In this document: positions 3,885-20,242 of the stretch, in pieces
Layout of the letters: every line of letters starts with the position of its first letter
Position numbering within the stretch: the stretch's first letter is position 1
NCBI GenBank assembly: GCA_004524445.1
Contig: SDNP01000029.1
Coordinates: 1 to 38,747 of the forward strand
DNA from: Candidatus Thorarchaeota archaeon
GTDB taxonomy: Archaea; Asgardarchaeota; Thorarchaeia; Thorarchaeales; Thorarchaeaceae
DNA length: 38,747 nt
Direction of reading: 5' to 3'
Notes under the pieces: model-generated
The model's database searches: none
What the model was told of the DNA's origin: nothing
What the model saw: only the letters and a program-made list of their open reading frames with translations
Made by a program: the position numbers and the translations under genes

Positions 3885-5795
3885 CTATGTCTTATACATA
3901 TGGAAGAAGTACGCACCGTGCATCGGATTGCAGGCGTATTGACCATCGTAGACATTGGCACCGGTGACAAACAGAGTTGTTCCCTGATAGACCCAGATGT
4001 AAGCTGCGTGTTCATACACAGCCTCTGTGATCTGTGCGTAGAGTGTTTCACGCTCATCCTCATCAAGGCTCTGTGCCGCGTCGTCAATCCAGCCATCAAC
4101 TTCCTCTGCGTCCCAACCTGGAGACTGTGCTAGTCGTGCCCAGTAGCCAAAAGTACCAGTGGACTTGGCATAGGGTGCGACGTAGTTGTCTGGGTCAGCA
4201 TAGTCTGGTGCCCATCCAATCATCCAGCAACCAACCTCGCCAGCGATAGCGGCATGGAGGTAGTTGGACCACTCAAGACCCTGAACTTGTATCTCGAGCT
4301 CCTCAGTGGGCTGTACTGCATCGTCATGCGCTAGAACTGCTCTGAGTCCGTCTGCTAGGAGTAGCTGAGCGTTCTCACGCACTGTGTTTCCAGAGTTGTA
4401 GTAGAAGACCAGTGTGTAGGAGTTGTTAGCCAGAATAGTGTCTAGATCGTTGTTGTTCATGGCGTCGTTCCAATAGCTGACGGCCTCTTCGATGTCATAT
4501 GAGTAGGTACTTGCATCCTCCGGGTATCCGAACATTCCTGTTGGAATCGGTCCGGCAAACTGATTGCCAAAGCCATTAGCGACCGTGTCAATCAAGGTCT
4601 CATAGTCAAAGGCATGGCTGAGACACTTCCGCAGGTTGATGACCTTGTATGGGTTCTCCACCACTTTTCCGAGAATAGTCTCGTTCATGGTCTCCGACAT
4701 CGTGAAGTGTATTGACGCGATGTTGAAGGTTGGATACTGAGCCCATACCTTCAGTGTATTGGGAGTCAAGCTCTGCTGTGTACCGTCATTAGCGCTGAAT
4801 GCTGGTGGAGATGCATTGTTGTAGACCTGAGTTGCATGAGTTGTCGGCCAATATACGACATCAGCCTCTTCAGCCTGGATATTCAAAATCCTGCTGTTTA
4901 CATCCTCATTGGTCTTGATGATAACTTCATCAATGGCTCCTGCGTTCGGGAAGTCTGTCCTAGCAGAAGCAGCTCTCCAGTAGTTTTCATTTCGCGCCAG
5001 TACGATATTGACATCCGGAGTCCATTCTGTGACCATATATGGTCCAGTTCCGCATGTGTTGTCGTCTAGGTAATCGTTGTGCGCTCCTATCTCGATACCA
5101 CCATGAGCCTCAACAAAGGTGGGGCTGATCATGGAACCAACTGCGTAGGTGATGGATGCCAAGAATGGCACGTATGGATAGGCCAGTCTGATTCTCACAG
5201 TATATGTGTCTAGAACCAGAACGGCACCAGTACCGTCTTCATTCGCATCTGCCCATTCTGTGAAGTTGCCAACATGATCATCGCTGCCTGGGCCTGAGCC
5301 GTAGACAGCATTCTCAATGGCGGCTCCACCAAGAATAGGTTCTGCAACCATCCAAACTGGGCCACTAGGATCGAATGTGGCTAACATTCTCTCGAAGTTG
5401 TATTGCACACAGGATGCGTTAAATGGCGTTCCATCGTGGAACGTGACGCCCTGACGGAGGGTGAAGGTATAGTTCAGCCCATCATCAGAAATCGTCAGAT
5501 CCTCTGCCAATAGAGGCACAGTGGGGTCTGTAGATAGCGAGTCGAATTCATACGTGTACAATGTTTCGTACACGTTGTAGTGAACCCATGAGCCAAATGA
5601 CTCATAGTTGTTGTGCGGATCCATGTAGTCAGGATTTCCAATCGTCTCCCAAACAAGGGTCTGACCAGTCGGCCTGGGTGGAGTCATCAAAAGGTAGGCT
5701 CCTGCCGCACCAACAATCACCACGATCACGACGACCGCTATGATTTGGTTTCTTTGAATTGTGTGTTCCTCCTTCTCTATATTTCCTTGAGTCAT
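3885..5795 (-). CDS. oppA: Oligopeptide/dipeptide ABC transporter substrate-binding protein (SBP family 5), N-terminal membrane anchor
   Basis: N-terminal TM helix; YTFTLRQGVTFHDGTPFNA signature; GTGPY; GWAPDYADPDN. Start chosen at MTQG. Confidence 0.93.
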   Translation of the reverse strand: MTQGNIEKEEHTIQRNQIIAVVVIVVIVGAAGAYLLMTPPRPTGQTLVWETIGNPDYMDPHNNYESFGSWVHYNVYETLYTYEFDSLSTDPTVPLLAEDLTISDDGLNYTFTLRQGVTFHDGTPFNASCVQYNFERMLATFDPSGPVWMVAEPILGGAAIENAVYGSGPGSDDHVGNFTEWADANEDGTGAVLVLDTYTVRIRLAYPYVPFLASITYAVGSMISPTFVEAHGGIEIGAHNDYLDDNTCGTGPYMVTEWTPDVNIVLARNENYWRAASARTDFPNAGAIDEVIIKTNEDVNSRILNIQAEEADVVYWPTTHATQVYNNASPPAFSANDGTQQSLTPNTLKVWAQYPTFNIASIHFTMSETMNETILGKVVENPYKVINLRKCLSHAFDYETLIDTVANGFGNQFAGPIPTGMFGYPEDASTYSYDIEEAVSYWNDAMNNNDLDTILANNSYTLVFYYNSGNTVRENAQLLLADGLRAVLAHDDAVQPTEELEIQVQGLEWSNYLHAAIAGEVGCWMIGWAPDYADPDNYVAPYAKSTGTFGYWARLAQSPGWDAEEVDGWIDDAAQSLDEDERETLYAQITEAVYEHAAYIWVYQGTTLFVTGANVYDGQYACNPMHGAYFFHMYKT

Positions 5796-6056
5796 TATGC
5801 ACAAATGGCATCACTACTCAAGAGTCGCTCTACGCGAACAAATACAAATAGAGCTAAGTCGCACTAATATAGATTGTGTATAACTTGGATTTAGCTCGGT
5901 TTGGGCTACTAACAAGGCGAATGAGCCCGGCGTGCCATAAACAGAATCTTCAAAGAGCATCCAAAGGCTTAAGTATTGTCCGAAAATCCGCTGATTGTAG
6001 GTTCAGAATTATGAACCTATCGCATGCAAAGTCCCCATCCTATGGAGAAAACAAAA

Positions 6057-7091
6057 ATGAAGCTCAGAGATTTTATTCTCAGGAGATTAGTCCTAGCCAT
6101 TCCTGTCATTATTGGCGTCCTGACTATCACATGGTTCCTTGCCTATATTGTCGGTGACCCTGTGACGCTCTATATTAATGAAAATACGCCTCAGGCTGCG
6201 ATACCCGCAATTCGGCAAGCTCATGGTCTAGATGAACCTCCTCACATTCAATTCTTCCTATACATTACGAATTTGATGCAAGGTGATTGGGGTGAGAGTG
6301 CATCGTCGAGCTTCCGACCAGTTCTTCAAGTGATTGCTGAGAAGTTTCCTGCAACTATTGAGCTGTCCATATTCGCAATGATATTTGCAGTGGTTCTGGG
6401 AATCCCCCTTGGCATCGTATCAGCCACTAGAAAGGACGAGATGGTTGATCATTTTACTCGCATCTTCTCCCTAGCAGGAGTATCCATGCCCATATTTTGG
6501 TTTGCTCTTATGCTGAAGTACATTCTCTTCTACCAGTTCAAAATCATGGGACTGCCCGCACTTCCTCCTGGCGAGAGATATTCTATCTCTACTTACCGAG
6601 ATTTCACGTCTGTTACAGGCTTCATGCTCATTGACTCGCTAGTATTTAATCTTGATATTCGTCTCTTCATAGACTCATTGCTCCATTTGGCGATGCCGGC
6701 ATTCTGTTTGGGATATCTGACGCTTGCAATCATCACTAGGATGATGAGGTCCAGCATGCTCGAAGTCTTGACTGAGGATTACATAACCCTCGCCAGGTCA
6801 AAGGGTCTGAAAGAACGAACCGTCATATACAAGCATGCCCTGCGAAATGCATTGATTCCTACGGTTACTGTGATCGGACTGGCATTTGGTGGCCTTATAA
6901 CGGGTGCCGTTCTGACTGAAACAATATTTCAGTGGCCCGGACTCGGCAGATGGGCTGTTCGTGCAATTTTGAATTCGGATTTGGCGGCAATCAATGGATT
7001 CACACTACTGGTTGCCTTCATATTTGTCACAGCCAACCTCTTGGTCGATTTAGTCTATGGCACACTTGACCCAAGGATTAGATTTGGATAG
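6057..7091 (+). CDS. oppB: Oligopeptide ABC permease OppB/DppB
   Basis: FILRRL, PATIEL, EAA loop EVLTEDYITLARSKGL, HALRNALIP, LDPRIR. Confidence 0.95.
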   Translation: MKLRDFILRRLVLAIPVIIGVLTITWFLAYIVGDPVTLYINENTPQAAIPAIRQAHGLDEPPHIQFFLYITNLMQGDWGESASSSFRPVLQVIAEKFPATIELSIFAMIFAVVLGIPLGIVSATRKDEMVDHFTRIFSLAGVSMPIFWFALMLKYILFYQFKIMGLPALPPGERYSISTYRDFTSVTGFMLIDSLVFNLDIRLFIDSLLHLAMPAFCLGYLTLAIITRMMRSSMLEVLTEDYITLARSKGLKERTVIYKHALRNALIPTVTVIGLAFGGLITGAVLTETIFQWPGLGRWAVRAILNSDLAAINGFTLLVAFIFVTANLLVDLVYGTLDPRIRFG

Positions 7092-7103
7092 GAGGCTCAT
7101 GAC

Positions 7104-8426
7104 TTGAACAGCACAGCTACACAAACCACGGAATACATAGAGAGCAGCAAAGGGATGCAATTTGGCATTTCTGCCGCCATCAACTACATTGTTGCTATTG
7201 GTGCATTCCTATTTGGAGGATTGATTTTAGCTGTAAATTTCGTTGGGGCAATAGCCTCAGTGATAGGTGCAAGCGTTGAACTGCCAATCTATTTCCAAGC
7301 TTGGCTAATTCAAGGACTTGCCGCAATAGTGATGGCGTACATAATACTGAGAGGTGGGCTTGCAATACACGACCAGTCCCTGTGGGCATTCACAACAGCA
7401 CTCTATTCAAACATCCTCTTAGCTGTTGTTTATTTTACCATAGGACTTACTGGCATTCCACTATCAGTTCTTTCTCTGGTTTCCATTCTATCTCTTTTCC
7501 AATCTGACGTACGGAAGTATTGGTATCCAAGCTTCAAAGAAGACATGTCTCCCCGTATCAAGGAGCTTCGATACAGCTTGTATTTAGTGAGAAAGAGTCC
7601 GCTTGTTGTTGCTGGTATTTTCATTCTTCTCACATTTCTTTCGTTGGCTTTTCTTGCTCCCTATATCGCTCCTTATGGACCTGAAGAGCGGGTTTGGCGG
7701 GACAACAATCTTCCACCGGGCTCCCCGAGCACAATAGAAGGAAATCCCATGCATTTTTGGGGTACAGACGATACAGGGGGCGATATATTCAGCAGGATTC
7801 TCTATGCAGCTCAAACTGATTTGTATGTTTCAATCACAGTTGTATTGGTCGCGGTTCTTATTGGCACATTCATCGGGGCAATTGCCGGATATTATGGCGG
7901 AAAGATTGATGAGGTAGTCATGCGAGTTACAGATGTGTTCTTTGCATTCCCTGGACTCGTTCTTGCAATGGCTATCGTCATGGCGCTCGGTGAGCGAAGT
8001 CTGCAGAGTATATCTTTGGCTCTGATGGTGACATGGTGGCCTAGCTATGCACGCTTGGTGAGAGGTCAGGTTCTGGGAGAGCGCGAAAAACTGTACGTCG
8101 AAGCTGCTAGATCCGTTGGAGCCAGCGATAGCCGTATCTTGGTCTATCATATTATTCCCAATACAATTCAACCCCTCATAGTTCAGGCAACTATGGATAC
8201 AGGCTCAGTGCTACTGGTTGCAGCAGGTCTTGCCTTCATTGGATTTGGGCCTCGTGCGGGAGTAGCTGAATGGGGTTTAATGATCTCAAAAGCCCAGAAC
8301 TTCTTCATGATTGCTCCCTGGGCAGTCTTCTTCCCTGGCTTCGCCATATTGTTCGTGGCTCTTGCTTTCAACCTAGTGGGAGATGGGATCCGAGATATTC
8401 TGGATCCTCGAATTCGGAGGCGATAG
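7104..8426 (+). CDS. oppC: Oligopeptide ABC permease OppC/DppC with an extra N-terminal membrane domain
   Basis: HFWGTDDTGGDIFSR, YVEAARSVGAS, GDGIRDILDPR; GGAGG SD before TTG. Confidence 0.93.
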   Translation: MNSTATQTTEYIESSKGMQFGISAAINYIVAIGAFLFGGLILAVNFVGAIASVIGASVELPIYFQAWLIQGLAAIVMAYIILRGGLAIHDQSLWAFTTALYSNILLAVVYFTIGLTGIPLSVLSLVSILSLFQSDVRKYWYPSFKEDMSPRIKELRYSLYLVRKSPLVVAGIFILLTFLSLAFLAPYIAPYGPEERVWRDNNLPPGSPSTIEGNPMHFWGTDDTGGDIFSRILYAAQTDLYVSITVVLVAVLIGTFIGAIAGYYGGKIDEVVMRVTDVFFAFPGLVLAMAIVMALGERSLQSISLALMVTWWPSYARLVRGQVLGEREKLYVEAARSVGASDSRILVYHIIPNTIQPLIVQATMDTGSVLLVAAGLAFIGFGPRAGVAEWGLMISKAQNFFMIAPWAVFFPGFAILFVALAFNLVGDGIRDILDPRIRRR

Positions 8427-8427
8427 C

Positions 8428-9585
8428 ATGGTAATCGAAGACTTGGATTTGGTCTTACATGTCAAGGACCTAGTAACAAACTTCTACACCTATGAAGGAG
8501 TGGTAAAGGCACTCGATGGAGTGGAGATGTTTCTGCGGCGTGGCGACACTATGGGTCTCGTGGGAGAAACAGGCTGCGGAAAATCCGTGACAGCAAGGTC
8601 AATCCTTCGAATTGTTGAGGCCCCCGGCAAGATTAATGGTGGGGAAGTTTGGTTCAATCCTAACTTGGATAATGGAGGAGAAGCAGAACCGGTGAATCTT
8701 TTGGAACTAAGTCCAGAGGAAATGCTTGATATCCGAGGTGAGAAGATTGCCATCGTCTTCCAAGACCCCGCGACATATCCAAATCCTGTGTTCAGGATTG
8801 GAGAACAAATTGCTGAAGTCATTCAGCTACATCAGGACCTGAGTCGTGATGTCGTAGAGATGAAGATTGAGAAGCTACAGAACTCGCTGAAAGAAGATAT
8901 GGACCGCGAGAGAGAATCCCAAATCAAAGAGAAGATCAAGTATTACGAGTCCATGCTAGATGATCCGCCTGAACCGGATGAGAAAGACGCCAAGATGGCT
9001 GCCAAGAAGCGAGCAGTCGAGATGCTTAAACTAGTCAAGATGCCTGCTCCAGAGCAAGTCGTAGACCAATATCCACATGAGTTGTCTGGCGGAATGCGAC
9101 AGAGAGCACTTATTGCTATGGCACTGGCTTGTAATCCCAGCGTCCTCATTGCTGATGAAGCGACCACGGCTCTTGACGTCACTGTTCAAGCACAAGTATT
9201 GCATCTGCTCAATGAGCTGAAGAAGGAAATTGGAACATCCATAATAATCATAACTCATGATATGGGTGTCGTTGCAGAAACCTGCAACTGGACCAACGTG
9301 ATGTATGCTGGAACCACTGTCGAAACATGTGCCACCAGGGAGTTGTTCAGTAATCCGCTGCATCCCTATACTGCTGGGTTATTGATAGCAGTTCCCAAAC
9401 TGCACGAAGAAAAAGAACGTCTTCCTCAGATTCTTGGAAGTGTTCCTAATCTCATCACGCCGCCTTCGGGTTGCCGTTTTCATCCAAGATGCGAATATGC
9501 CACTGAAGTATGTAGCAGGGAGAAGCCCCAGCTAAGAGAGCTGGAGCCCGAGCACTGGGTTGCATGCCATCATCCACTCAAATAA
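8428..9585 (+). CDS. oppD: Oligopeptide ABC ATPase OppD/DppD with a charged insertion
   Basis: Walker A GETGCGKS, LSGGMRQR, IADEATTALD, ITHD, C-terminal GCRFHPRC...C...CH. Confidence 0.95.
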   Translation: MVIEDLDLVLHVKDLVTNFYTYEGVVKALDGVEMFLRRGDTMGLVGETGCGKSVTARSILRIVEAPGKINGGEVWFNPNLDNGGEAEPVNLLELSPEEMLDIRGEKIAIVFQDPATYPNPVFRIGEQIAEVIQLHQDLSRDVVEMKIEKLQNSLKEDMDRERESQIKEKIKYYESMLDDPPEPDEKDAKMAAKKRAVEMLKLVKMPAPEQVVDQYPHELSGGMRQRALIAMALACNPSVLIADEATTALDVTVQAQVLHLLNELKKEIGTSIIIITHDMGVVAETCNWTNVMYAGTTVETCATRELFSNPLHPYTAGLLIAVPKLHEEKERLPQILGSVPNLITPPSGCRFHPRCEYATEVCSREKPQLRELEPEHWVACHHPLK

Positions 9586-9600
9586 CAGGAGAAATGAAAT

Positions 9601-10641
9601 ATGTCAGATAATGTATTGCTCAAAGTTCGAGGGCTCAAGAAGTATTTCCCGCTGACTGGTGGTGTCTTCAGGAAAGTTATTGGACAGGTTCACGCCGTCG
9701 ATGGTATCGACATGGATATCAGAAAAGGGGAGACAATGGGAATAGTTGGCGAGAGCGGCTGTGGCAAGACAACACTTGGCCGAACCGTCCTCCGCTTAAT
9801 TGAGCCTACAGAAGGGCAGATTGTTTTTGACGGAGAGGACATATCCGAGCTCAGTGGTCGAGATTTGAGAAAAATCCGAAGAGAGATGCAGATTGTCTTT
9901 CAGGATCCTATGGCGTCTCTAGACCCACGACTTACTATCAAGAATTCTGTCGGAGAGCCACTATTGGTTAATGGCATCGCTAAGGGTCCAGAAATGAGAC
10001 GAATGGTACTGGACTTGCTGCAGAAAGTCGGATTGACGGAAGACCACCTCAATCGTTTTCCACACGAATTCAGTGGTGGACAGCGGCAGAGAATCTGCAT
10101 TGCTCGTGCCCTCGCATTGAATCCTAAGTTTGTCGTGATGGATGAGCCCACCTCAAGTACGGATGTTTCTGTTCAGGCACAGACGCTGAATCTAATGAAG
10201 GACCTTCAGGAAGAATTGAACCTGACATACATGTTCATCTCACACGACTTGAGCGTTGTGAAGCACATGAGCGATAGGATAGCTGTCATGTACCTTGGCC
10301 AGATTGTAGAGCTTACCCCGCATGATATCTTCAGGGGTGCATTACACCCTTACACTTTTGCTCTCGTATCAGCCGTTCCTATTCCCAATCCCAAGTTTGC
10401 CGGCAAGGCACAAATTCTCAGTGGTGAAGTACCGAGCCCGATTAGCCCGCCCACCGGCTGTAGATTTCATCCAAGATGCATATTTGCTGAGGACATATGT
10501 GAAACCGAGCAACCCGAGCTTCGTGATATGGGTGACGGACACCTCGTTGCATGTCACTTTGCTGGAGAATTGGACTTTGGTTCAAGTGCTCAACAGACTT
10601 ATGCAGACGCCATGGGCGAAAGGGAAAAAGCGGAAGCATAG
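9601..10641 (+). CDS. oppF: Oligopeptide ABC ATPase OppF/DppF
   Basis: GESGCGKT, FSGGQRQR, MDEPTS, ISHDL, GCRFHPRC. Confidence 0.95.
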   Translation: MSDNVLLKVRGLKKYFPLTGGVFRKVIGQVHAVDGIDMDIRKGETMGIVGESGCGKTTLGRTVLRLIEPTEGQIVFDGEDISELSGRDLRKIRREMQIVFQDPMASLDPRLTIKNSVGEPLLVNGIAKGPEMRRMVLDLLQKVGLTEDHLNRFPHEFSGGQRQRICIARALALNPKFVVMDEPTSSTDVSVQAQTLNLMKDLQEELNLTYMFISHDLSVVKHMSDRIAVMYLGQIVELTPHDIFRGALHPYTFALVSAVPIPNPKFAGKAQILSGEVPSPISPPTGCRFHPRCIFAEDICETEQPELRDMGDGHLVACHFAGELDFGSSAQQTYADAMGEREKAEA

Positions 10642-10938: not shown

Positions 10939-11280
10939 TTGGAATCCGGCAGGCTTTCAGAGATTCAATTCTCCTTGGCAATCGCCACAATCATTGTATC
11001 AGTCGACAGTGGCATTGCATTGGCTGTGCTTCTTGTTTATTCTGGTTATTCAGCATTCTATGTCATTAGCATCCTTTTGATTTTAGAATTCGGAATAATG
11101 CTGATTGTTGGTGCTCTGTTAATGTCAAGGCAGCCATTAGACGACACTAACCGCTATGATGATGAAGGGCATCCTGTTCAATCATGGAGAGCCGCATTGA
11201 TTGGGCGAACTGTCCTCATATCGTCACTCTTTGTTTTGGCATTTGCCGCTCTCTTTGGGTTCTTGGAGGGGGTCTTCTAG
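10939..11280 (+). CDS. Small 3-TM membrane protein, hypothetical
   Basis: Three hydrophobic segments; closely follows the previous gene. Confidence 0.7.
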   Translation: MESGRLSEIQFSLAIATIIVSVDSGIALAVLLVYSGYSAFYVISILLILEFGIMLIVGALLMSRQPLDDTNRYDDEGHPVQSWRAALIGRTVLISSLFVLAFAALFGFLEGVF

Positions 11281-12068
11281 GGATATTCCGTTGGTAGGCT
11301 GGACCTGCCCGACGAAAGCGAGAATACTAACCTTGTTAAGAGCAAAAGCACGTAGAAGAATAAAATAATGGCCAGTGCTAGATATCCCACTGAGAGTGCT
11401 GGAGAGACTGTGCTCAGAGCAAATGCGGGGGATAGAAACAAGCTCCAAGAAATGTATGAAAATGCTTGGGCAATGAGGGGTGGGATGCTACTGCCGAAGG
11501 GGGATATCACCAAGAATACAATGCCGAGAGCCGTTGAAATTCTCATCCAACTTTTTACAGAATTGAATGCAATCTTTGCATAAACGACATCTTGCCTATT
11601 TAGGTCGGACAAATCTTTCTCCATAAGAAACCCTAACAGCTCCTGAGACGTCTTTGCGTTCCCGGGACCCATTACAACTGCCAATCCGACAATGAAGACC
11701 ATAATCATCACGCCGGTTGCAACGATCGACCCGACTAGGAGCAGAACGACTACCATCGATGACGCACCAAGAATGAGCGCTAGGCAAATGAATCCACTCA
11801 AGGTGTTATCCTCAAGATAGTCATTAATCCTGTCTTGGAATGAATTATGGCTATTGTTTGACACGTTATCCATGACCCATTGATGTGATATACATCTACT
11901 CAGTTCCCCCTCAATCTTTTCGCCCTCTCTGGCTTTCCAGACATCATGATGAAGATTCTCTTGGAACTGCTTAAACGCACCATATTCGCGGAATCGCCAA
12001 ATGGCTGATAGGATGATGAGAATACCGGAAGCGAGAAAGGCAGTAGGCAATTCCATTTCATATGGCAA
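11277..12068 (-). CDS. Multi-pass membrane protein, hypothetical
   Basis: 263-aa ORF with several hydrophobic helices; start could be 12056. Confidence 0.75.
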   Translation of the reverse strand: MPYEMELPTAFLASGILIILSAIWRFREYGAFKQFQENLHHDVWKAREGEKIEGELSRCISHQWVMDNVSNNSHNSFQDRINDYLEDNTLSGFICLALILGASSMVVVLLLVGSIVATGVMIMVFIVGLAVVMGPGNAKTSQELLGFLMEKDLSDLNRQDVVYAKIAFNSVKSWMRISTALGIVFLVISPFGSSIPPLIAQAFSYISWSLFLSPAFALSTVSPALSVGYLALAIILFFYVLLLLTRLVFSLSSGRSSLPTEYP

Positions 12069-12097
12069 ATTTCATTTTCTCTTTAATATATGCTCAT

Positions 12098-12952
12098 TCA
12101 GACATCACGATAATGCATTATCAATTGTTCAATAGCAAACATCCATACATGATGGAATAGTTCTCTTGATTTGTTGCTATTTCCATAGTTTCTGGCAATG
12201 TAAATTGTTACGTTTCCACGAAGATTTACTGGTCTTGAGTTGTTTACAGAGAGCGCGACTCGCTCTCCCTTCGTTTTGAGTTCCATTCCACGCTGCCTTA
12301 ACACTTTGGGACTCTCAGAAAACGTATAATCCAGATTATTTTTCGGAATGGGATATATCTCACATTCTAAGCCATTAAAATCAACAAAGACTTCAATAGT
12401 TGCGAACTCGTATCGGGGTATCGGCTTAGTTGGCCGAGGAAATGACGGCGCAATAACGGGGCGCATTTTTGGTTTATTCATTGCAACGCCCCCTTCAACA
12501 ATCCCGCAGAAATCCCCACCAGCTCCCGAGAAATGTAATCGGTGGATAGAATCCACTTCTGTATCGAAAACGCCTGTTTCCTCTTTGACTACTCCGTACG
12601 GATTATCCTTTCCTTCAGCCGCTTTGCTCCAGTAGTAAAATGGGCATGTTACCATGGGAAGAATTCTTTCTGACCAAAGAATCTTCTTTTTCATAATCTT
12701 GATTATTTCCTCATTGACCACGAATAAAGAAAATTCTGCTGGTCCCAGCGTCTTCGCATATTCTGATAGAGCTACGGCTGAATTCTCTTGGTCTAAAATA
12801 ATCCGGGATGCCGCTTCTCTTAGGTCCTCAGGTTCTAGTTCTAGAGAGGTTTTGTCGCTGGTGCCTATGGGCTGCCGTATGTCAAATGAATACGCATATC
12901 TTTCCTGAAATTCTCGAATTGATGACATGGGAAATTGGATACTAGGCTTCAC
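12098..12952 (-). CDS. Soluble hypothetical protein
   Basis: 284-aa ORF with protein-like composition; no motif recognised; start could be ATG 12928. Confidence 0.75.
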   Translation of the reverse strand: MKPSIQFPMSSIREFQERYAYSFDIRQPIGTSDKTSLELEPEDLREAASRIILDQENSAVALSEYAKTLGPAEFSLFVVNEEIIKIMKKKILWSERILPMVTCPFYYWSKAAEGKDNPYGVVKEETGVFDTEVDSIHRLHFSGAGGDFCGIVEGGVAMNKPKMRPVIAPSFPRPTKPIPRYEFATIEVFVDFNGLECEIYPIPKNNLDYTFSESPKVLRQRGMELKTKGERVALSVNNSRPVNLRGNVTIYIARNYGNSNKSRELFHHVWMFAIEQLIMHYRDV

Positions 12953-13212
12953 AAATTGGGTATCTTCTTAACGTCCATATTCTTTTTGGTCATTACGCGC
13001 CAATTGGTCGCTAGCTCAAAACACGTATATATCCAGATTATACTTGAGCTATGTCGTCTATTAGCCGGGAGAACGGACGCGACCTCTCGAGCAACCCTGA
13101 ATCGGGTTCAGAAAAACGGTTGGATTGCTAGGATTGGTTTCCTCTGTTTGCCGTGTTCTCTATTGCTCTGATCGAGGTCTTCCTCTTGGTGGGTACACTT
13201 CGGTGCCCACCC

Positions 13213-14292
13213 CTATTCTTTTTGAATCTCCTCATAACGAATGCATCGTATCCAGTGTCCTGGCTCTACTTCTCTGTATTCAGGAACCTTTTCCTTGCAC
13301 CCATCTTTCGCAAAGTCACATCGCGGATGGAATGGACAGCCTTCTGGAATGTTGCGTGGGTCAGGTGGCTCGCCTCGGATGCCCCTAAGTTTCGGACGGG
13401 ATCCTCCCTCACGCATACGCATCATGGCAATGGTTGGAAATGATGCCATCAAGCCCATGGTGTACGGATGACCTGGACTATGGTATATTTGAACCGCATT
13501 GCCAAGCTCCATTATTTTGCCTGCATACATTATGGCAATTCTATCCGAAACCTCAGCAATCACACCTGCGTCATGGCTAATCATGATGGTCGAAACATCG
13601 AATTCGTCTTTGACCATTTGAAGCACATTCATTATCTGTCTTTGAATCGTCACGTCTAGTGCACTGGTTGGTTCATCGGCTATTACTAGATATGGTCCTG
13701 AGATTAACGACATGGCAATGAGTACCCTTTGAGCTTCTCCACCACTAAAACTGCCGGGGTCCAATACATAGCGAGTGTCCGCGTCGGCTAGGCTCACGAG
13801 ATTGAGAAAATCCAAGACTTTCTTCTTCATTTCTATGAGACGCACATCTTCATCATGAATCTCAATTGGCTCTCCTGTTTGCATGCCAATGGAATATTGT
13901 GGATTCAGTGCATGTGTGAGTCCTTGTGGAATCATTGCAATCTCTTTTCCTCTGAGTTTTGCAAGCTCTTCATATGGCGTGTTCAGCATGTCATGTCCTC
14001 TGAAGATTACTGTGCCAGTAGCGCCAGGCGTTTCTTCTCCGTTTTTCTCAAACTCCTTTAGGAGTCCTGGTACATTGGATGAACCTGCTCGAAACCGTGC
14101 CATCTTGTCGAAAAGCCCGATTATGGCAAGAGCAAGTGAGCTCTTGCCACAGCCACTCTCGCCCAAAATGCCTAATGACTCTCCCTTCTTCACGTCAAAT
14201 GAAACATCATCGACTGCTTTTATCAAACCGTCTTTTGACGGGTAGTATGCTCTTAGGTTTTCAACATGTAGTATGACTTCCTCGTCGGACAT
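13213..14292 (-). CDS. Orphan OppD-like ABC ATPase
   Basis: GESGCGKS, FSGGEAQR, IADEPTSALD, ISHD, GCPFHPRC...C...C; start at MSDEEV. Confidence 0.92.
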   Translation of the reverse strand: MSDEEVILHVENLRAYYPSKDGLIKAVDDVSFDVKKGESLGILGESGCGKSSLALAIIGLFDKMARFRAGSSNVPGLLKEFEKNGEETPGATGTVIFRGHDMLNTPYEELAKLRGKEIAMIPQGLTHALNPQYSIGMQTGEPIEIHDEDVRLIEMKKKVLDFLNLVSLADADTRYVLDPGSFSGGEAQRVLIAMSLISGPYLVIADEPTSALDVTIQRQIMNVLQMVKDEFDVSTIMISHDAGVIAEVSDRIAIMYAGKIMELGNAVQIYHSPGHPYTMGLMASFPTIAMMRMREGGSRPKLRGIRGEPPDPRNIPEGCPFHPRCDFAKDGCKEKVPEYREVEPGHWIRCIRYEEIQKE

Positions 14293-14375
14293 GATGCTCA
14301 CTTCTAGGTCCAGAAAGTTTTGTATTAAAACAATGTTGATGAAGCAGAACTTGATTTTCATTAAACCTACTTAGT

Positions 14376-14388
14376 AACCCTTTATACA
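14376..14388 (+). promoter_or_regulatory. TATA box upstream of the DUF362 gene
   Basis: AACCC-TTTATA (14381-14386), ~33 nt before ATG 14419. Confidence 0.5.
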
Positions 14389-14418
14389 TGGATTGTTCTT
14401 CGTTTGATAGGGTTAAGA

Positions 14419-15597
14419 ATGAGCAAGGTGTATTTCTCGGACAGAAAAGCAGAATCTCACTATAACATGCTTGACAAGCTGGAGCATGTCCTACAAGAGA
14501 TGGGATTTTTGGATGCAATTGAAGAAGGCGAAAAGGTTATGGTCAAGACCCATTTTGGGCAATGGGGAAATACTAACTATATTCGTCCTGCCTATGTTCG
14601 GAAGGCCGTTGAACTTATTCGTGAAGCGGGTGGTGTCCCATTCGTTTGTGAATCTTGCGGGCTTGGTTATGGTGAGGGTGGTGCATATGGCGGACGAACA
14701 ACGGCTCCTGAATATCTTGCCATGGCTGAACTGAACGGCTATACGCAGGCAACGGTTAATGCCCCGATACTCATGGCAGATGGTTATTGGGGGACTGATG
14801 TCTTTGATGTCGAGATTGACGGTGAGTACGTGAAAAAGGTAGATGTAGCAACCGCTGTCCTTGATTCTGATAAGATATTGATGCTCACACACGCAAAGGG
14901 TCATGGTCTCGGTGGGTTAGGTGGATCTGTCAAAAATCTTGGAATTGGACTAGTAGGCAAGAAAGGCAAAGCCGAGATGCATTGGATGGGCGATATCGAT
15001 TTGGATGAAGAGAAATGCCTGGGTCCTGAATGCTCTAAGTGCCTGAAGGTCTGCCCAGTAAGATGTATAACAATGGAAGAAAAGGCTAATATTGAAAAAG
15101 ATGAATGCATTGCATGTTATCACTGCATTCACGTATGCAATCGTGTTAAGGCAAAGGCTATCTCAATGACCTGGCGCCCAAATCATACGCAAGTCTATAG
15201 ATTTGTTGAGAACGCTCTTGGGGTCATTGATTCCATTGGCCGCGAGAAGTTCTGGTATGTCAATCTCGCAGTGGATATCTCCGACAAGTGTGATTGCTGG
15301 AATGTAGGTGCACCTCTACTAGTTCATGACATTGGCATCTTCGGCTCAAAAGACCCTTTGGCTATAGACCAAGCATCATTGGATGCAATAAATGAAGCTC
15401 CTGCCAATCCAGAGTCCGCAGTTGGTAAAGAAGTGTGTCAGGAGAAGTTCGCTACTGCTCATGCCTGCAAGGACCCCGATTCTGGCGAGATTGTGCCGCT
15501 TGCCGATATTCAGATGGCTCATGCTGACAAGATGAAGTTGGGTTCTCGCGAATATGAGCTTGTCCAGCTGACAAGAGAGAAGCCTGACAAGAGCTAG
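14419..15597 (+). CDS. DUF362-family Fe-S protein with an inserted 2x[4Fe-4S] ferredoxin domain
   Basis: VKTHFGQWGN, ADG, THAKGH, GGSVKNLGIG, CLGPECSKCLKVCP / CIACYHCIHVC, CDC, DIGIFGSKDPLAIDQA. Confidence 0.88.
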   Translation: MSKVYFSDRKAESHYNMLDKLEHVLQEMGFLDAIEEGEKVMVKTHFGQWGNTNYIRPAYVRKAVELIREAGGVPFVCESCGLGYGEGGAYGGRTTAPEYLAMAELNGYTQATVNAPILMADGYWGTDVFDVEIDGEYVKKVDVATAVLDSDKILMLTHAKGHGLGGLGGSVKNLGIGLVGKKGKAEMHWMGDIDLDEEKCLGPECSKCLKVCPVRCITMEEKANIEKDECIACYHCIHVCNRVKAKAISMTWRPNHTQVYRFVENALGVIDSIGREKFWYVNLAVDISDKCDCWNVGAPLLVHDIGIFGSKDPLAIDQASLDAINEAPANPESAVGKEVCQEKFATAHACKDPDSGEIVPLADIQMAHADKMKLGSREYELVQLTREKPDKS

Positions 15598-15604
15598 GAA
15601 GACT

Positions 15605-16144
15605 ATGGAGTTGTGGAAATACATGCAGGAAGAATGGTTCAGAACAATGCTTGCTGAAGCTCATCGAAATCAGAGAAATCATCTCGAAAGAATGATTGCC
15701 GGATTAACCGATGAGCACATTATGAAGAAAGTGATACCCAACGAGGAACAGTCTAGTATTTTCGTTCTTCTCGAACATATTGCATCATCCGAAACATACT
15801 GGTTCTACAGAAGCAAGCATGGAATTGGCTCTCGGCCTGAAACCAGCAAGCCAGCGGAGATTCTTGAGAAATTGAAGGAAAACTCGGAGAAGATTCTTGA
15901 TGTACTTCAAAGATGCAGCAAAGAACAACTCCGCATTATTCCTCCATCGCCAGCTGAAGGTCCATCCGTAGCTTGGGCTCTGCTTAGGACGTATATGCAT
16001 GGAATATACCATTCTGGACAAATTGCCAAGTTCAGATATTTAGCTGGGGCTCCGCCGCTTCCGGAGGAGGACATTGACAATTGGGCACGTGCCGTTGACT
16101 CGGTCGCGGCGATAGTAGACGGTTTCATAGACCAGATTGGTTAG
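15605..16144 (+). CDS. DinB/YfiT-family metalloprotein
   Basis: His triad in LEHIASSETYW and HGIYHSGQI; 7 nt after the DUF362 stop. Confidence 0.85.
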   Translation: MELWKYMQEEWFRTMLAEAHRNQRNHLERMIAGLTDEHIMKKVIPNEEQSSIFVLLEHIASSETYWFYRSKHGIGSRPETSKPAEILEKLKENSEKILDVLQRCSKEQLRIIPPSPAEGPSVAWALLRTYMHGIYHSGQIAKFRYLAGAPPLPEEDIDNWARAVDSVAAIVDGFIDQIG

Positions 16145-16229
16145 CGTCTTGTATTGCATTTCTAAAGGACAGAAAAACAGAATGGACTTATCTATATAGT
16201 TGCATCTGCCTTTTTGGAGATTTGTAGAA

Positions 16230-16367
16230 TTGCAGGGGTTCCCTAGAGAGGCAAAATTTCGATATTCTTGGCGAAATTATCAAGCCAGGACATTGAAGGA
16301 ATTGAGTGATTATCTCGAGGACGGAGTCAAACGAAATCCCATTGAGTCACGCTTATACTGCGCATAA
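16230..16367 (+). pseudogene. N-terminal fragment of a DEAD/DEAH-box (ResIII-like) helicase
   Basis: Manual translation (TTG)MQGFPREAKFRYSWRNYQARTLKELSDYLEDGVKRNPIESRLYCA*. WRxYQ resembles an SF2 Q-motif; the ORF ends before any Walker A; TATA-like TTATCTATATA at 16188-16198. Confidence 0.5.
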
Positions 16368-16511
16368 GTGGGGCCTCTCAAATTCCTGAATCTCTCAGGA
16401 CACCTCGTAAACTTCCTCCTGCTCCGATAGAAACCTCCAGCTCCTCCAGCAAATTCGAGGCCTTTGAGTCACAACAAACTCCAGTTGCCAAGTGTTATTG
16501 TCAGAGCATTG

Positions 16512-17837
16512 CTATGTATCTCGGATCTTTTGCTTTCCTCTCTGCAAATATGGAGTGAACCTGATACGTGATGGGCACACGTATGAACAGAGTCCGCAGT
16601 CAATGCATACCTCAACATGAAGCTTCTTCAATCGGTCTATATCTCCTGCTTTTTCAGCCTCCATTATCAGTTGAGGATAGATATCAACTGGACAGACAGT
16701 ATTGCAATAGCCACAGCGGATACATGGCAGGGGGTTCCGATACGGATCCGGTTCCTTTTGTGTGAAAGCGGTGATTCCCGAGGTCGCTTTCAAAACAGGA
16801 TATGATGAATTAGGTATGGAGGGGCCCATCATTGTTGAACCAATCACAATACGTTCGAATTCGCTTGGCGATACCCCGACTGATTCTAGCACATGCTCGA
16901 CCGGTGTACCCATTCGAACCCAGAGATTCTTTCCTCCCGTTTTTTTCGAATACATGGTTAGGCCCCTACTAACGAGCGGCTCTCCATCTATGACTGCCCG
17001 TTTGACAGCATGCGCAGTCGATACGTTGTGAACCACTGCCCCAATGTCTGGTGGATATTTCCCATATGGAATCTCTTTGTCAAGAATCTCCTTTATGAGC
17101 AATTTCTCGCTTCCGATCGAATAGCTAGGCCTTATTCTTATGATAGGGATGTCGTTTTCGCCCAGTAGTTTCTCGAACTCAGGAATCTCACCCTCTTTTG
17201 TTCTTGTGGCAAATATGACCTCATCTGCCTCAAGCATCTGGGTCATCAACTTGATTCCAGTTATTATTCCAGCGGGCTTTTCGACCATCAGTCGTGAATC
17301 GCATGCTATGTTTGGGTCACTTTCCTTTGCATTGATAAGAAGATGAGATATCGGTTTCTCTGGAGATAATTTGACATGAGTCGGAAATGAAGCTCCCCCC
17401 AGACCTACAACACCTGCTTCCCTTACCCTCTCCTGCAATTCCTCTGTTGTCGCATCATCCGGATCTAAAGGCTCGTAGTAGGGTTTTTGTTTATCATCAT
17501 GGGTTTCTATAATCAAAGCCATCTCTTTCTTGCCCGATTCGGGATGCTGCCTTTGGGTCAGGGCAACAACTCTTCCGTTTACTGGACTATGTATGGGAAC
17601 AACAAGCGGTCCGCCACTCAAATCATCACCAATCTTCTGTCCGTAGAATACCTTATCGCCTACTTGAACTGAGGGCTTCGTTTCAGGTCCGATATGCTGA
17701 CGCAGGAAAACAACCATCTCCTTAGCCGGCGGAATAAATATGAACGGGGAATCCACTGCATCTCTCTTCATGGACAGGTCCATTTTGAAGCCCCCCTTTT
17801 CTACAAACTCACTTACAGGTTTTTCGTTGGTCTTCAT
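16512..17837 (-). CDS. rnfC: RnfC/RsxC-like electron-transport subunit
   Basis: LRQHIG, PIHSPVNG, AGVVGLGGASFPTHVK, CIRCGYCNTVCP and CIDCGLCSYVCPS. Confidence 0.92.
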   Translation of the reverse strand: MKTNEKPVSEFVEKGGFKMDLSMKRDAVDSPFIFIPPAKEMVVFLRQHIGPETKPSVQVGDKVFYGQKIGDDLSGGPLVVPIHSPVNGRVVALTQRQHPESGKKEMALIIETHDDKQKPYYEPLDPDDATTEELQERVREAGVVGLGGASFPTHVKLSPEKPISHLLINAKESDPNIACDSRLMVEKPAGIITGIKLMTQMLEADEVIFATRTKEGEIPEFEKLLGENDIPIIRIRPSYSIGSEKLLIKEILDKEIPYGKYPPDIGAVVHNVSTAHAVKRAVIDGEPLVSRGLTMYSKKTGGKNLWVRMGTPVEHVLESVGVSPSEFERIVIGSTMMGPSIPNSSYPVLKATSGITAFTQKEPDPYRNPLPCIRCGYCNTVCPVDIYPQLIMEAEKAGDIDRLKKLHVEVCIDCGLCSYVCPSRIRFTPYLQRGKQKIRDT

Positions 17838-17839
17838 GA

Positions 17840-18886
17840 CTAGGTTCCTCCGTCGTCCTCCCTTAGTCCATAAGGTGTCCTGATTCCGATTTTGTCAAGA
17901 TATGGCGTTGCTAGGTTAAGAACTAATAGTGCGATAATCGATCCTCCAAGGACATTAAGAAGTTGTAGTGCAAATGTCAGTAGGGCAAGTGTAACGCCAA
18001 AGATAATCTGGGATATTTCCGGCATGGGTGTTGACTGCGGTTCAGTTGCCATAAAGAAGACCATGAAGATGACACTTCCTGTGAAGACATGGAACGCAAT
18101 CCGCAAAATGGGATCTCCTCCGACTGCCAGTCCAGTAATTACAGCAAGAGCCGTCATTGTCGTCAGAGTAGATATGATGATGCGCCACTTGAATTTGAGC
18201 CAGTATGCTGCTAGCGCACCTACAACGAGTACGACAATTCCAGATGCGCCGCCAATCCAGCCATGGGTTTGCCAGAGCACAAGGGCCTGCGCGGGTGAGA
18301 GCTCAATACCCAGAATTGGCAATATCTTTCCACTGAAAATCCACATCGAGTCCTGAAAGCCTTCAGCACTCAGAAGATCCAGGCTGAGATGATGTGGATG
18401 AAAGATCATCCCAACGTCCAGAGAGTCTTCCAAGAATATCATGAGAGAGAGCAGTACGAGCAGCACAGTCTTAGATGCTGCAGCAGGGTTGACGTATTTT
18501 CTGTCGAAATATGCCCCCTGTCCGTACTTGAACACTAGGATTGTAATCAAGGCCACGGTAACAGTAACTAGAAATGGACTGGCGATGGGCATAGCTAATC
18601 CCACTATCAAACCTGCAACCATGGGCGAGCTAGGTGATTCATATGTTGGTTTCATTCCTCGCCATTTCTGATAGTAGAATATCAGACCATGTACCAGAAT
18701 AACCGTGACAACAGCAATCATGATATGAAAGAAGGCATCGAGGCCCATCACAATGACAGAGGCAAGAGCGATGAATGACATCGACAGAAAGGTCTTGAAC
18801 ATCAACTCGTCCTTTGTGAAGCCCATGTACATGTGTGGTGGTTCAACCTTGACATATTCTACTGCGTTTTCCTCTTCATTGCTCAT
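17840..18886 (-). CDS. rnfD: RnfD/NqrB-family membrane subunit
   Basis: PPH, VNPAAA, GWIGGAS, VFFMATEPQSTP; ~10 TM helices; GGTGA SD. Confidence 0.88.
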   Translation of the reverse strand: MSNEEENAVEYVKVEPPHMYMGFTKDELMFKTFLSMSFIALASVIVMGLDAFFHIMIAVVTVILVHGLIFYYQKWRGMKPTYESPSSPMVAGLIVGLAMPIASPFLVTVTVALITILVFKYGQGAYFDRKYVNPAAASKTVLLVLLSLMIFLEDSLDVGMIFHPHHLSLDLLSAEGFQDSMWIFSGKILPILGIELSPAQALVLWQTHGWIGGASGIVVLVVGALAAYWLKFKWRIIISTLTTMTALAVITGLAVGGDPILRIAFHVFTGSVIFMVFFMATEPQSTPMPEISQIIFGVTLALLTFALQLLNVLGGSIIALLVLNLATPYLDKIGIRTPYGLREDDGGT

Positions 18887-19117
18887 CGGTGTTTCACCTA
18901 TATCCTATCCTCTAGAAAAAAGACAAGTCTTTAAGTTTCTCGTCTACAGTTTTTGAATAGAAAAAGAATCAGTCATCTAGGCCCTTAGTTAACCAGCACC
19001 GATTCTTCTTCCAATTAAGGCTACAAGTAGCCAATGTCTTGAATATCTTTTGGAATTACTGCTCAATTTGCCGGAGGTTGCACGTGTTAGTGGATAAGAA
19101 CAGATGATTAGATTTCA

Positions 19118-20242
19118 TTAGAATTCAGGAAGTTCTTCGTACCTGTGGCAGAAAATCCAATGATCATCTTCCACTTCACGATACTCAGGAACCTGTTCGA
19201 CACAGATGTTTCTCTTGTACTGGCATCTAGGATGAAAAGGACAGCCAGATGGTGGATTCGTCATATCGGGTGGACTTCCTGGAATCCCTCGAAGAATCAA
19301 ACCCTTCTCCCTGATTCTCCGTATCATTTCCATTGATGGGTTGCTCATGAGAAAGGCTCTTGTGAATGGGTGTCCAGGGTACATTAGAATGGTTTCCGCG
19401 TCTGCGAACTCCATTATGCGTCCTGCAGACATGACTGCTATTCTGTCTGCGGTTTCTGCCATGAGACCCTGGTCATTAGTGATAAGGAGCATAGTCAAGT
19501 CCAGCTTCTCACGTACCAAATTGATGGCATCCATAATTCGTCCTTGCACTCCAACATCGAGGGCTGTAGTTGGCTCATCAGCAATGAGGATTTCAGGTAC
19601 CATTATGAGCGCCATGGCAATCAACACCCGTTGGTCTTCTCCCATGCTGAATTCCTTGGGTTTCAAGGCCTTGCGGATGTCTATATCACCAATCTCTACC
19701 AGGTCCAAGACCTGGAGTACCCGCCTCAGGACCTCCCTCTCATATAGAACACTCTCATCATCGTGAGCCCATAGCGATTCAGCTGTCTGTAGTTGAATGT
19801 TAGTATATGGATTCAATGACTTCATTGTTCCTTGAGGGACATAGGTAATCTCATTTCCTCGAATTTTCCTGAACTCTTCTTCGTTGAGGGCGAGTAAGTC
19901 CTCTCCTTTATACCAGATGTGACCTTCAACTCCGGGCAGCTTCTCTCCAATGTCATCAGAAGTCTTGCCCTCTTTGCGAGCTTTCTCACGCAGTTCCCAA
20001 AGTCTCTTGTTTTCTTTGTCACCCGATGCTGAACCGAATTTTGCTGTCTTCTCAAATATCCCCAAAATCGCCAACGCTACAGAAGACTTGCCAGCGCCGG
20101 ATTCGCCGAAGAGACCTACTGATTCCCCTCTCCTGATGCCGAATGATACATCATTGACAGCGTGCACCAAACCACGTTTTGACGTATAGGCCGCCCTTAG
20201 GTTTTCTACCTTCAGAACGTATTCATCAGCATGTTCTGGCAT
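19118..20242 (-). CDS. Second orphan OppD-like ABC ATPase with degenerate signature and H-loop
   Basis: GESGAGKS, FSMGEDQR, IADEPTTALD, ITND (canonical ITHD), GCPFHPRC...C...CH. Confidence 0.92.
   Translation of the reverse strand: MPEHADEYVLKVENLRAAYTSKRGLVHAVNDVSFGIRRGESVGLFGESGAGKSSVALAILGIFEKTAKFGSASGDKENKRLWELREKARKEGKTSDDIGEKLPGVEGHIWYKGEDLLALNEEEFRKIRGNEITYVPQGTMKSLNPYTNIQLQTAESLWAHDDESVLYEREVLRRVLQVLDLVEIGDIDIRKALKPKEFSMGEDQRVLIAMALIMVPEILIADEPTTALDVGVQGRIMDAINLVREKLDLTMLLITNDQGLMAETADRIAVMSAGRIMEFADAETILMYPGHPFTRAFLMSNPSMEMIRRIREKGLILRGIPGSPPDMTNPPSGCPFHPRCQYKRNICVEQVPEYREVEDDHWIFCHRYEELPEF

Follow-up and report, generated by a model that had tools for sequence, protein, structure and literature searches.

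The locus and its two OppD-like ATPases

The stretch analyzed here (the window) comprises 38,747 nt of contig SDNP01000029.1 from a Candidatus Thorarchaeota archaeon (assembly GCA_004524445.1) and contains two genes, which we call A and B, for OppD-like ATP-binding cassette (ABC) ATPases. An initial annotation, made from the sequence alone, had joined them with the DUF362, DinB, rnfD and rnfC genes lying between them into a single candidate redox system. We found that A and B make up a two-gene unit that is conserved in the Thorarchaeota family to which this genome belongs. The genes of the window were defined by open reading frame (ORF) listing together with family scans (Pfam, NCBIfam), which gave the following layout:

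3885–10641: complete type-1 oppABCDF operon, which adjoins gene A in most relatives
3885–5804, minus strand: SBP5 binding protein, part of this operon
6024–10641, plus strand: OppB, OppC, OppD and OppF of the same operon, which thus has its own D-type and F-type ATPases
10939–12952: w10939 (113 aa, membrane), mem263 (membrane, multi-transmembrane) and hyp284 (soluble), all without a family match
13213–14292, minus strand: gene A, OppD-like ABC ATPase of 359 aa (longest ORF 13213–14361)
14404–15597, plus strand: DUF362 protein with an inserted 4Fe-4S dicluster domain (family scan)
15605–16144, plus strand: DinB/MST-superfamily protein (family scan), which usually travels with DUF362
16512–17837, minus strand: rnfC (TIGR01945, 396.7 bits)
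17840–18886, minus strand: rnfD-like gene (RnfD family)
19118–20242, minus strand: gene B, OppD-like ABC ATPase of 374 aa, paralogue of A
beyond gene B: a small membrane ORF and an amidohydrolase

The start of gene A is very probably the ATG at 14292, since its homologues are 359–362 aa long and can be aligned from that point. Gene A lies 2.6 kb from the end of the oppABCDF operon, and this synteny is conserved in relatives. The earlier statement that neither ATPase has an adjacent permease is therefore right for the immediate neighbors but passes over a complete and syntenically conserved operon nearby. Gene A, DUF362-DinB and rnfDC occupy separate strands or transcription units in the window, and the stretch from the gene B stop codon to the rnfD start contains T-rich tracts. 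A scan for bacterial promoters and terminators is not meaningful for an archaeon; the sole item noted was a 9-bp GC-rich hairpin at 13188–13211, directly after the gene A stop codon and followed by a T-rich stretch on the plus strand.

Both proteins combine a PF00005 (ABC_tran) domain with a PF08352 (oligo_HPY) domain, the latter scoring 62 bits in A and 53 bits in B. Their best NCBIfam match is OppD (PRK09473), with 275.7 and 256.3 bits, respectively, which is below the cut-off of 575; the operonic OppD1 likewise falls under this cut-off (339 bits). A and B share 48–51% identity with each other (48% in the comparison scoring 344 bits), compared with 31–34% identity to OppD1 and OppF1 of the adjacent operon and 37–41% to OppD2 of a second operon, which bears out the initial view that they resemble each other more than they resemble the operonic subunits. 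All of the motifs that had been quoted for the pair were recovered in the alignment of A and B. These comprise an insertion after Walker A (GLFDKMARF in A, GIFEKTAKF in B) and, common to both proteins, a PQG Q-loop and the elements LRGIxGxPPD, GCPFHPRC, VPEYREVE and HWI.C.RYEE.

The four C-terminal Cys residues of A and B align to the [4Fe-4S] ligands C284, C290, C297 and C315 of Escherichia coli DppD, and judging from this alignment the C-terminal domain of both proteins is of the [4Fe-4S] type, as had been proposed. The Cys tail and the Glu of the ABC signature had also been put forward as special features. They are present in A and B, but the four Cys occur in all four ATPases of the window and the signature Glu is found in Mycobacterium tuberculosis OppD as well (SGGE), such that neither is peculiar to the pair.

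Both proteins retain the Walker A motif (GESGxGKS), the Q-loop Gln, the Asp-Glu of Walker B (DEPT) and the D-loop (ALD). Gene A is otherwise canonical, with an FSGGEAQR signature and a consensus-like SHD H-loop. Gene B is non-consensus at both positions, with an FSMGEDQR signature and an ITND sequence that has Asn in place of the H-loop His. This substitution, overlooked in the initial annotation, is characteristic of the B clade, in which motif logos showed the Asn to be at least 90% conserved. Clade-wide logos also showed PQG in place of FQDP in both the A and the B clades. The insertion after the Walker A helix is about 22 aa long in A and about 35 aa long, charged and helical in B, and both proteins end in a clade-specific RYEE(LPEF) tail. 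The operonic OppD1 (8383–9585) has insertions of its own, a charged-rich one of about 47 aa in the helical subdomain and a short second one after the Walker A region, and its Walker B motif reads DEAT.

AlphaFold2 (AF2) models of A and B had mean predicted local distance difference test (pLDDT) scores of 77.5 and 81.7, respectively. The insertion of B was modeled with fair confidence as two helices (residues 63–71 and 76–91). The B model best matched E. coli OppD, E. coli DppD and M. tuberculosis OppD, the first of these (8z21_C) being the top hit with TM-scores of 0.75 by model and 0.85 by target. The Q-loop and helical subdomain of both models had pLDDT values of 33–56 with alignments of 21 rows, and this region was left uninterpreted. 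A predicted complex of A and B with two ATP and two [4Fe-4S] clusters scored 0.01 against a mark of 0.32, a value that counts neither for nor against binding.

Distribution and origin of the A–B pair

We searched 33 genomes of the same Thorarchaeota family for A and B and drew gene maps of about 30 loci. A was present in 32 of the 33 genomes and B in 30. The two genes were found on one contig in 23 genomes, no more than 6 kb apart in 21 of these and less than 250 bp apart in six, where they form five B-then-A tandems and one convergent pair. The same B-A tandem was found on a metagenome contig. One family genome (G002) has lost A and B jointly while retaining the opp operon, DUF362 and DinB.

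The gene maps revealed a conserved frame, in which the opp operon is followed by w10939, mem263, hyp284, an ORF of about 285 aa, gene A, a variable interval, gene B, a major facilitator superfamily (MFS) transporter and an amidohydrolase. The A–B interval is either empty or holds combinations of DUF362, DinB, an approximately 350-aa protein with seven transmembrane (TM) helices and a methyltransferase. In most genomes the orphan pair lies beside an opp operon, and it never lies inside one; in one genus (g9), A and B are kept although the type-1 opp operon, mem263 and hyp284 are absent. The initial annotation had reckoned with the possibility that orthologues normally sit within complete opp operons, and what we observed was proximity to the operon in most genomes rather than membership of it. 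No permease or binding-protein gene belonging to the pair was seen in any genome inspected, and none of the non-ATPase neighbors examined (rnfD, DUF362, mem263, hyp284, the MFS transporter, the 285-aa ORF and the 350-aa 7-TM protein) was conserved across the A/B genomes checked. None of the neighbors tested is obligatory, and the six-gene redox arrangement of the window is genus-specific. The gap between A and B appears to be a variable insertion site, and the DUF362, DinB and rnfD-rnfC genes that occupy it in the genus of the window would then be cargo, not partners.

To place the pair among related ATPases, we analyzed a tree of 88 sequences with Shimodaira-Hasegawa-like approximate likelihood ratio test (SH-aLRT) supports and a further tree rooted on F-type subunits. 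A and B together formed a clade with a support of 100, separate from the operonic OppD and OppF, in which A and B were each monophyletic; the phylogeny thus agrees with the initial description of them as sister paralogues. In the tree rooted on F-type subunits, a D-type branch (support 100) comprised the orphan clade along with OppD1-3 and E. coli DppD, and the orphan clade (support 99) also took in solitary genes from two further Asgard families. In the tree of 88 sequences, a singleton orphan from a sister family (G025) branched below the A/B split. The orphan clade is represented by a single gene in other Asgard families and by a duplicated one in the Thorarchaeota family of the window, and A and B therefore stem from an older orphan D-type ATPase that was duplicated at the level of this family. 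The pre-duplication singleton retains the H-loop His, and both the loss of this His and the SMGE signature of B postdate the duplication. A library-wide HMMER search with A returned mostly fused two-domain ATPases at the top and only three close single-domain cluster representatives, which shows that the orphan clade is narrow.

Some genomes carry extra solitary copies of A or B type in unrelated contexts. A solitary B-type paralogue lies beside four genes resembling a group-3 [NiFe] hydrogenase in G015 (L046:6881-12232), and another, in G022 (L045:7512-9676), overlaps by 4 nt the gene of a NosD-like beta-helix protein. Two solitary A-type paralogues (L041:6439-8015 and L042:7138-8703) are preceded by a conserved ORF that encodes about 160 aa and has no family match; the ORF overlaps the ATPase gene by 4 nt in one locus and is 6 nt away from it in the other, and a regulator with two helix-turn-helix (HTH) domains is encoded near both.

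Possible roles and candidate partners

Two Opp-type permease sets are encoded in the window genome, and a D-type and an F-type ATPase come with each of them; for all remaining permeases of the BPD_transp_1 family in this genome, an ATPase match lies within about 1.5 kb. As all permeases are already served, A and B are supernumerary. Two or three Opp systems are present per genome, and an F-type subunit belongs to every one of them. At the second Opp locus, a pair of genes for OppC-like permeases (about 520–540 aa) is accompanied by only one OppB, one OppD and one OppF. Such type-2 loci were located in G009 (L071:7878-16000), in G011 (L074:5683-13200) and on contig C26 of the window genome, and the locus falls into two halves, OppC-OppD-OppF and OppB...OppC, in G019 and G004. 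The window genome also holds more than 10 SBP_bac_5 genes with the halves of the Pfam model in swapped order (e.g., C50:19923-25539, C62, C7 and C2), some of them in giant ORFs of 1260 and 2597 aa; these far exceed the two Opp permease sets in number.

We tentatively favor, at a little under even chances, the interpretation that A and B are an asymmetric dimer that derives from OppD and works in trans on Opp-type peptide permeases. In this arrangement catalysis would fall to A, with B being slow or regulatory; the dimer would dock on Opp-type permeases encoded elsewhere and, once docked, would act in peptide import as an alternative motor or as a modulating one. A and B probably do form a dimer, because their divergence after duplication, their co-occurrence and their joint loss make up the pattern expected of an obligate asymmetric heterodimer; the heterodimer suggested in the initial annotation is thus plausible, and its suggestion of swap-in ATPases survives among the readings considered here.

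Action of the pair on Opp-type permeases is a possibility that we hold with some reserve, and docking is suggested by the retention in both proteins of the Q-loop Gln, of an Asn and a Glu in the helical subdomain and of the Fe-S ligands. In E. coli DppBCDF, DppD E114, DppF N113 and DppF E124 contact the coupling helices of the permease, and the Cys ligands of the Fe-S domain are needed for translocator assembly (PMC12136057). The residues aligned to DppD E114, DppF N113 and DppF E124, and those aligned to the Cys ligands, are identical in A, B and their paralogues. Conservation across the Q-loop and the beginning of the helical subdomain was also above the average of the protein concerned (0.85 vs. 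0.79 in A, 0.80 vs. 0.76 in B), and OppD1 and OppF1 displayed the same pattern of surface conservation.

Several observations weigh against the in-trans interpretation. A and B are both D-type, while canonical translocators pair one D-type with one F-type subunit. At the loci inspected (in G000, G004, G009, G011, G012 and G019), all Opp-type permease sets came with D-type and F-type ATPase genes of their own, leaving none in visible need of A and B, and genus g9 maintains the pair without a type-1 operon. The change of Q-loop context from FQDP to PQG could reflect a different docking partner, and the conserved private insertions and private tail of the clade would fit a new partner as well. 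Solitary paralogues are found near hydrogenase-like genes, a NosD-like gene and an HTH regulator. Finally, judging from the motifs, any dimer containing B would have one non-consensus element in each ATP site.

Some of these points lend themselves to a different explanation, namely that the orphan clade left transport and that the pair is permease-independent, working as a soluble, ATP-driven and possibly redox-sensitive clamp on some enzyme or regulator whose gene lies elsewhere. In the genomes inspected the pair has no permease or binding-protein gene of its own, the Opp permeases all have ATPases already and the pair is D-type only, and the altered Q-loop context, the clade-specific insertions and the RYEE tail suggest a new interface. 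There is also precedent in this lineage of nucleotide-binding domains (NBDs), as PhnK (7z15_I) was among the fold matches and TIGR03269 (component A2) among the sequence matches. PhnK/PhnL act on carbon-phosphorus (C-P) lyase and component A2 functions in methyl-coenzyme M reductase activation, in both cases without a permease. Against this, the surroundings of the pair yielded no conserved candidate partner, the helical subdomain and the residues that contact the coupling helices show the conservation pattern of genuine transporter subunits, and most genomes have the locus next to an opp operon. We regard a departure of this D-type Fe-S clade from transport as rather unlikely. If it did occur, the resulting ATP-gated, possibly redox-gated switch on a partner would represent a new functional class of ABC protein derived from the motors of peptide importers.

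Alternatively, A and B might not pair with each other at all, each being a D-type subunit that replaces OppD and pairs with an OppF in one of the Opp translocators, with their adjacency a mere consequence of tandem duplication. Both are D-type and go back to one orphan D-type gene; their contact residues have been retained, and the F-type subunits of the two or three Opp systems per genome would offer pairing partners. However, A and B co-occur in nearly every genome and are lost jointly, the combination of a degenerate B with a canonical A is the pattern expected of obligate heterodimers, and the occurrence of extra solitary paralogues does not follow opp operon number. We consider this explanation quite unlikely.

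Two further explanations involve the genes between A and B, whose distribution we assessed in 25 family genomes. An orthologue of the DUF362 gene was present in 14 of these, always at the A/B locus and usually with DinB, divergent from A. This could mean that DUF362-Fer4 and DinB are optional partners of the pair, for example in Fe-S or cofactor handling, and the spread of DUF362-carrying genera over the A tree may indicate that the arrangement is ancestral. Yet the remaining 11 genomes, all carrying A and 10 of them also B, had no DUF362 orthologue; G002 keeps DUF362-DinB in the absence of A and B; the singleton ATPase of G025 is on another contig than the DUF362 orthologue of that genome; and G035 has a DUF362 orthologue and no orphan ATPase. 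Within one family, inherited gene order alone can explain a shared position. A facultative redox accessory of this kind is improbable in our estimation.

The system originally proposed, in which A, B, RnfC/RnfD, DUF362 and DinB constitute one machine for ATP-coupled electron transfer or cofactor maturation, can be largely discounted: the genes are adjacent in the window and in one other genome of the same genus, and four of the six products, those other than DinB and RnfD, are actual or probable Fe-S cluster proteins, but an rnfD-like gene was found in only 4 of the 25 genomes, in two of which (G012 and G006) it is on a different contig from A/B, A and B are direct neighbors in six genomes, the tracts between B and rnfD are terminator-like as well as T-rich, and A, DUF362-DinB and rnfDC-B are on different strands and in different transcription units. 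The linkage to rnfCD and DUF362 that such a machine would entail was not found when we looked across the family genomes, and its variant of ATP-coupled electron transfer through Rnf received no comparative support. In all, we are highly confident that A and B have no dedicated system with Rnf, DUF362 and DinB.

Within the A–B interval, rnfD-rnfC occurs only in the window genome and the other genome of its genus. The two genes form a module with a 4-base start/stop overlap, which is also found at unrelated loci in G012 (L057) and G006 (L058), and this module seems to behave as a mobile or patchily kept unit. The window RnfC is above the TIGR01945 cut-off (396.7 vs. 245.95 bits), while the RnfD-like protein, at 64.7 bits, is under the TIGR01946 cut-off of 207.05 and above the Pfam cut-off. 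The window genome (2.79 Mb, 90% complete) contains one RnfD-family gene, and no gene of the RnfA/E family was found in it, so that it has no Rnf complex.

Other genes near the pair were considered as partners and rejected. The proteins mem263 and hyp284, examined as a possible hidden membrane partner, go with the type-1 opp operon, and neither turned up in G009 or G023, which keep A and B. Three more candidates lack an orthologue in G000 or were not found there: the MFS transporter (divergent from B, and also beside the G025 singleton), the 285-aa ORF (divergent from A, without a family match) and the 350-aa 7-TM protein (convergent with B), the last of which is present in G002, where A and B are missing. 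The 350-aa protein is predicted to have about seven TM helices, ends in a soluble part, matches no Pfam or NCBIfam family and recurs in many relatives (e.g., L032:10986-12053, L030:9777-10826 and L056:2625-3674). The genes w10939, mem263 and hyp284 trail the type-1 opp operon in nearly all relatives. This group may comprise uncharacterized accessory parts of the type-1 Opp system, given that mem263 and hyp284 were not found in G009 and G023, which are without the type-1 operon.

Returning to the asymmetric dimer acting in trans, a spare motor pair of this kind could provide a regulatory layer on peptide import, because the Fe-S domain of such ATPases controls translocator assembly (PMC12136057). 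A literature search on Thorarchaeota peptide transporters and orphan OppD proteins found nothing relevant. Peptide uptake is thought to be central to the metabolism of Thorarchaeota. Whatever the role of the pair, A and B define a clear but unnamed OppD-derived subfamily of ATPases, which is kept in nearly all genomes of the family without a permease of its own and in which one member is systematically degenerate.

Comparison with known ABC systems

The closest known relatives of A and B are the OppD/DppD ATPases of peptide importers, such as those of E. coli OppBCDF (8z21) and DppBCDF (8z1v), M. tuberculosis OppD (Rv1281c, 8j5q) and Thermoanaerobacter tengcongensis DppD (4fwi), with which they share the domain pair, the fold and the D-type branch, as well as Walker A, the Q-loop Gln, Walker B, the D-loop, the four Cys and the coupling-helix Glu and Asn. 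They differ from these proteins in being encoded without a permease or binding protein, in both being D-type, in having PQG for FQDP and in scoring below the NCBIfam OppD cut-off. The insertion of 22–35 aa after the Walker A helix and the RYEE(LPEF) tail are further differences, to which B adds the SMGE signature and the H-loop Asn.

The mode of action that we consider most likely for A and B is that of the multitask ATPases MsmX and MsiK, the products of stand-alone genes that act in trans on permeases encoded elsewhere (PMC7658222). However, the multitask ATPases are MalK-type homodimers for sugar permeases that have no ATPase genes of their own, whereas the Opp permeases here do have their own ATPases and A and B are a diverged pair of D-type duplicates.

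A dual ABC dimer without a permease is exemplified by PhnK/PhnL on C-P lyase (PDB 7z15), in which two different ATPases of the peptide/nickel-transporter lineage are combined. The PhnK and PhnL genes are located inside the phn operon with their enzyme partner, while no conserved partner accompanies A and B, and both the sequence and the fold of A and B are far more similar to OppD/DppD than to PhnK.

TAP1/2, TM287/288 and CFTR are heterodimeric ABC proteins with one degenerate ATP site. As in A and B, one subunit remains consensus, while the other has diverged after duplication, with loss of the H-loop His and a changed signature. Classically, the non-consensus Walker B or H-loop and the non-consensus signature are on different subunits and meet in a single site. 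In the pair described here both unusual elements are on B, such that each of the two sites of an A–B dimer would carry one of them.

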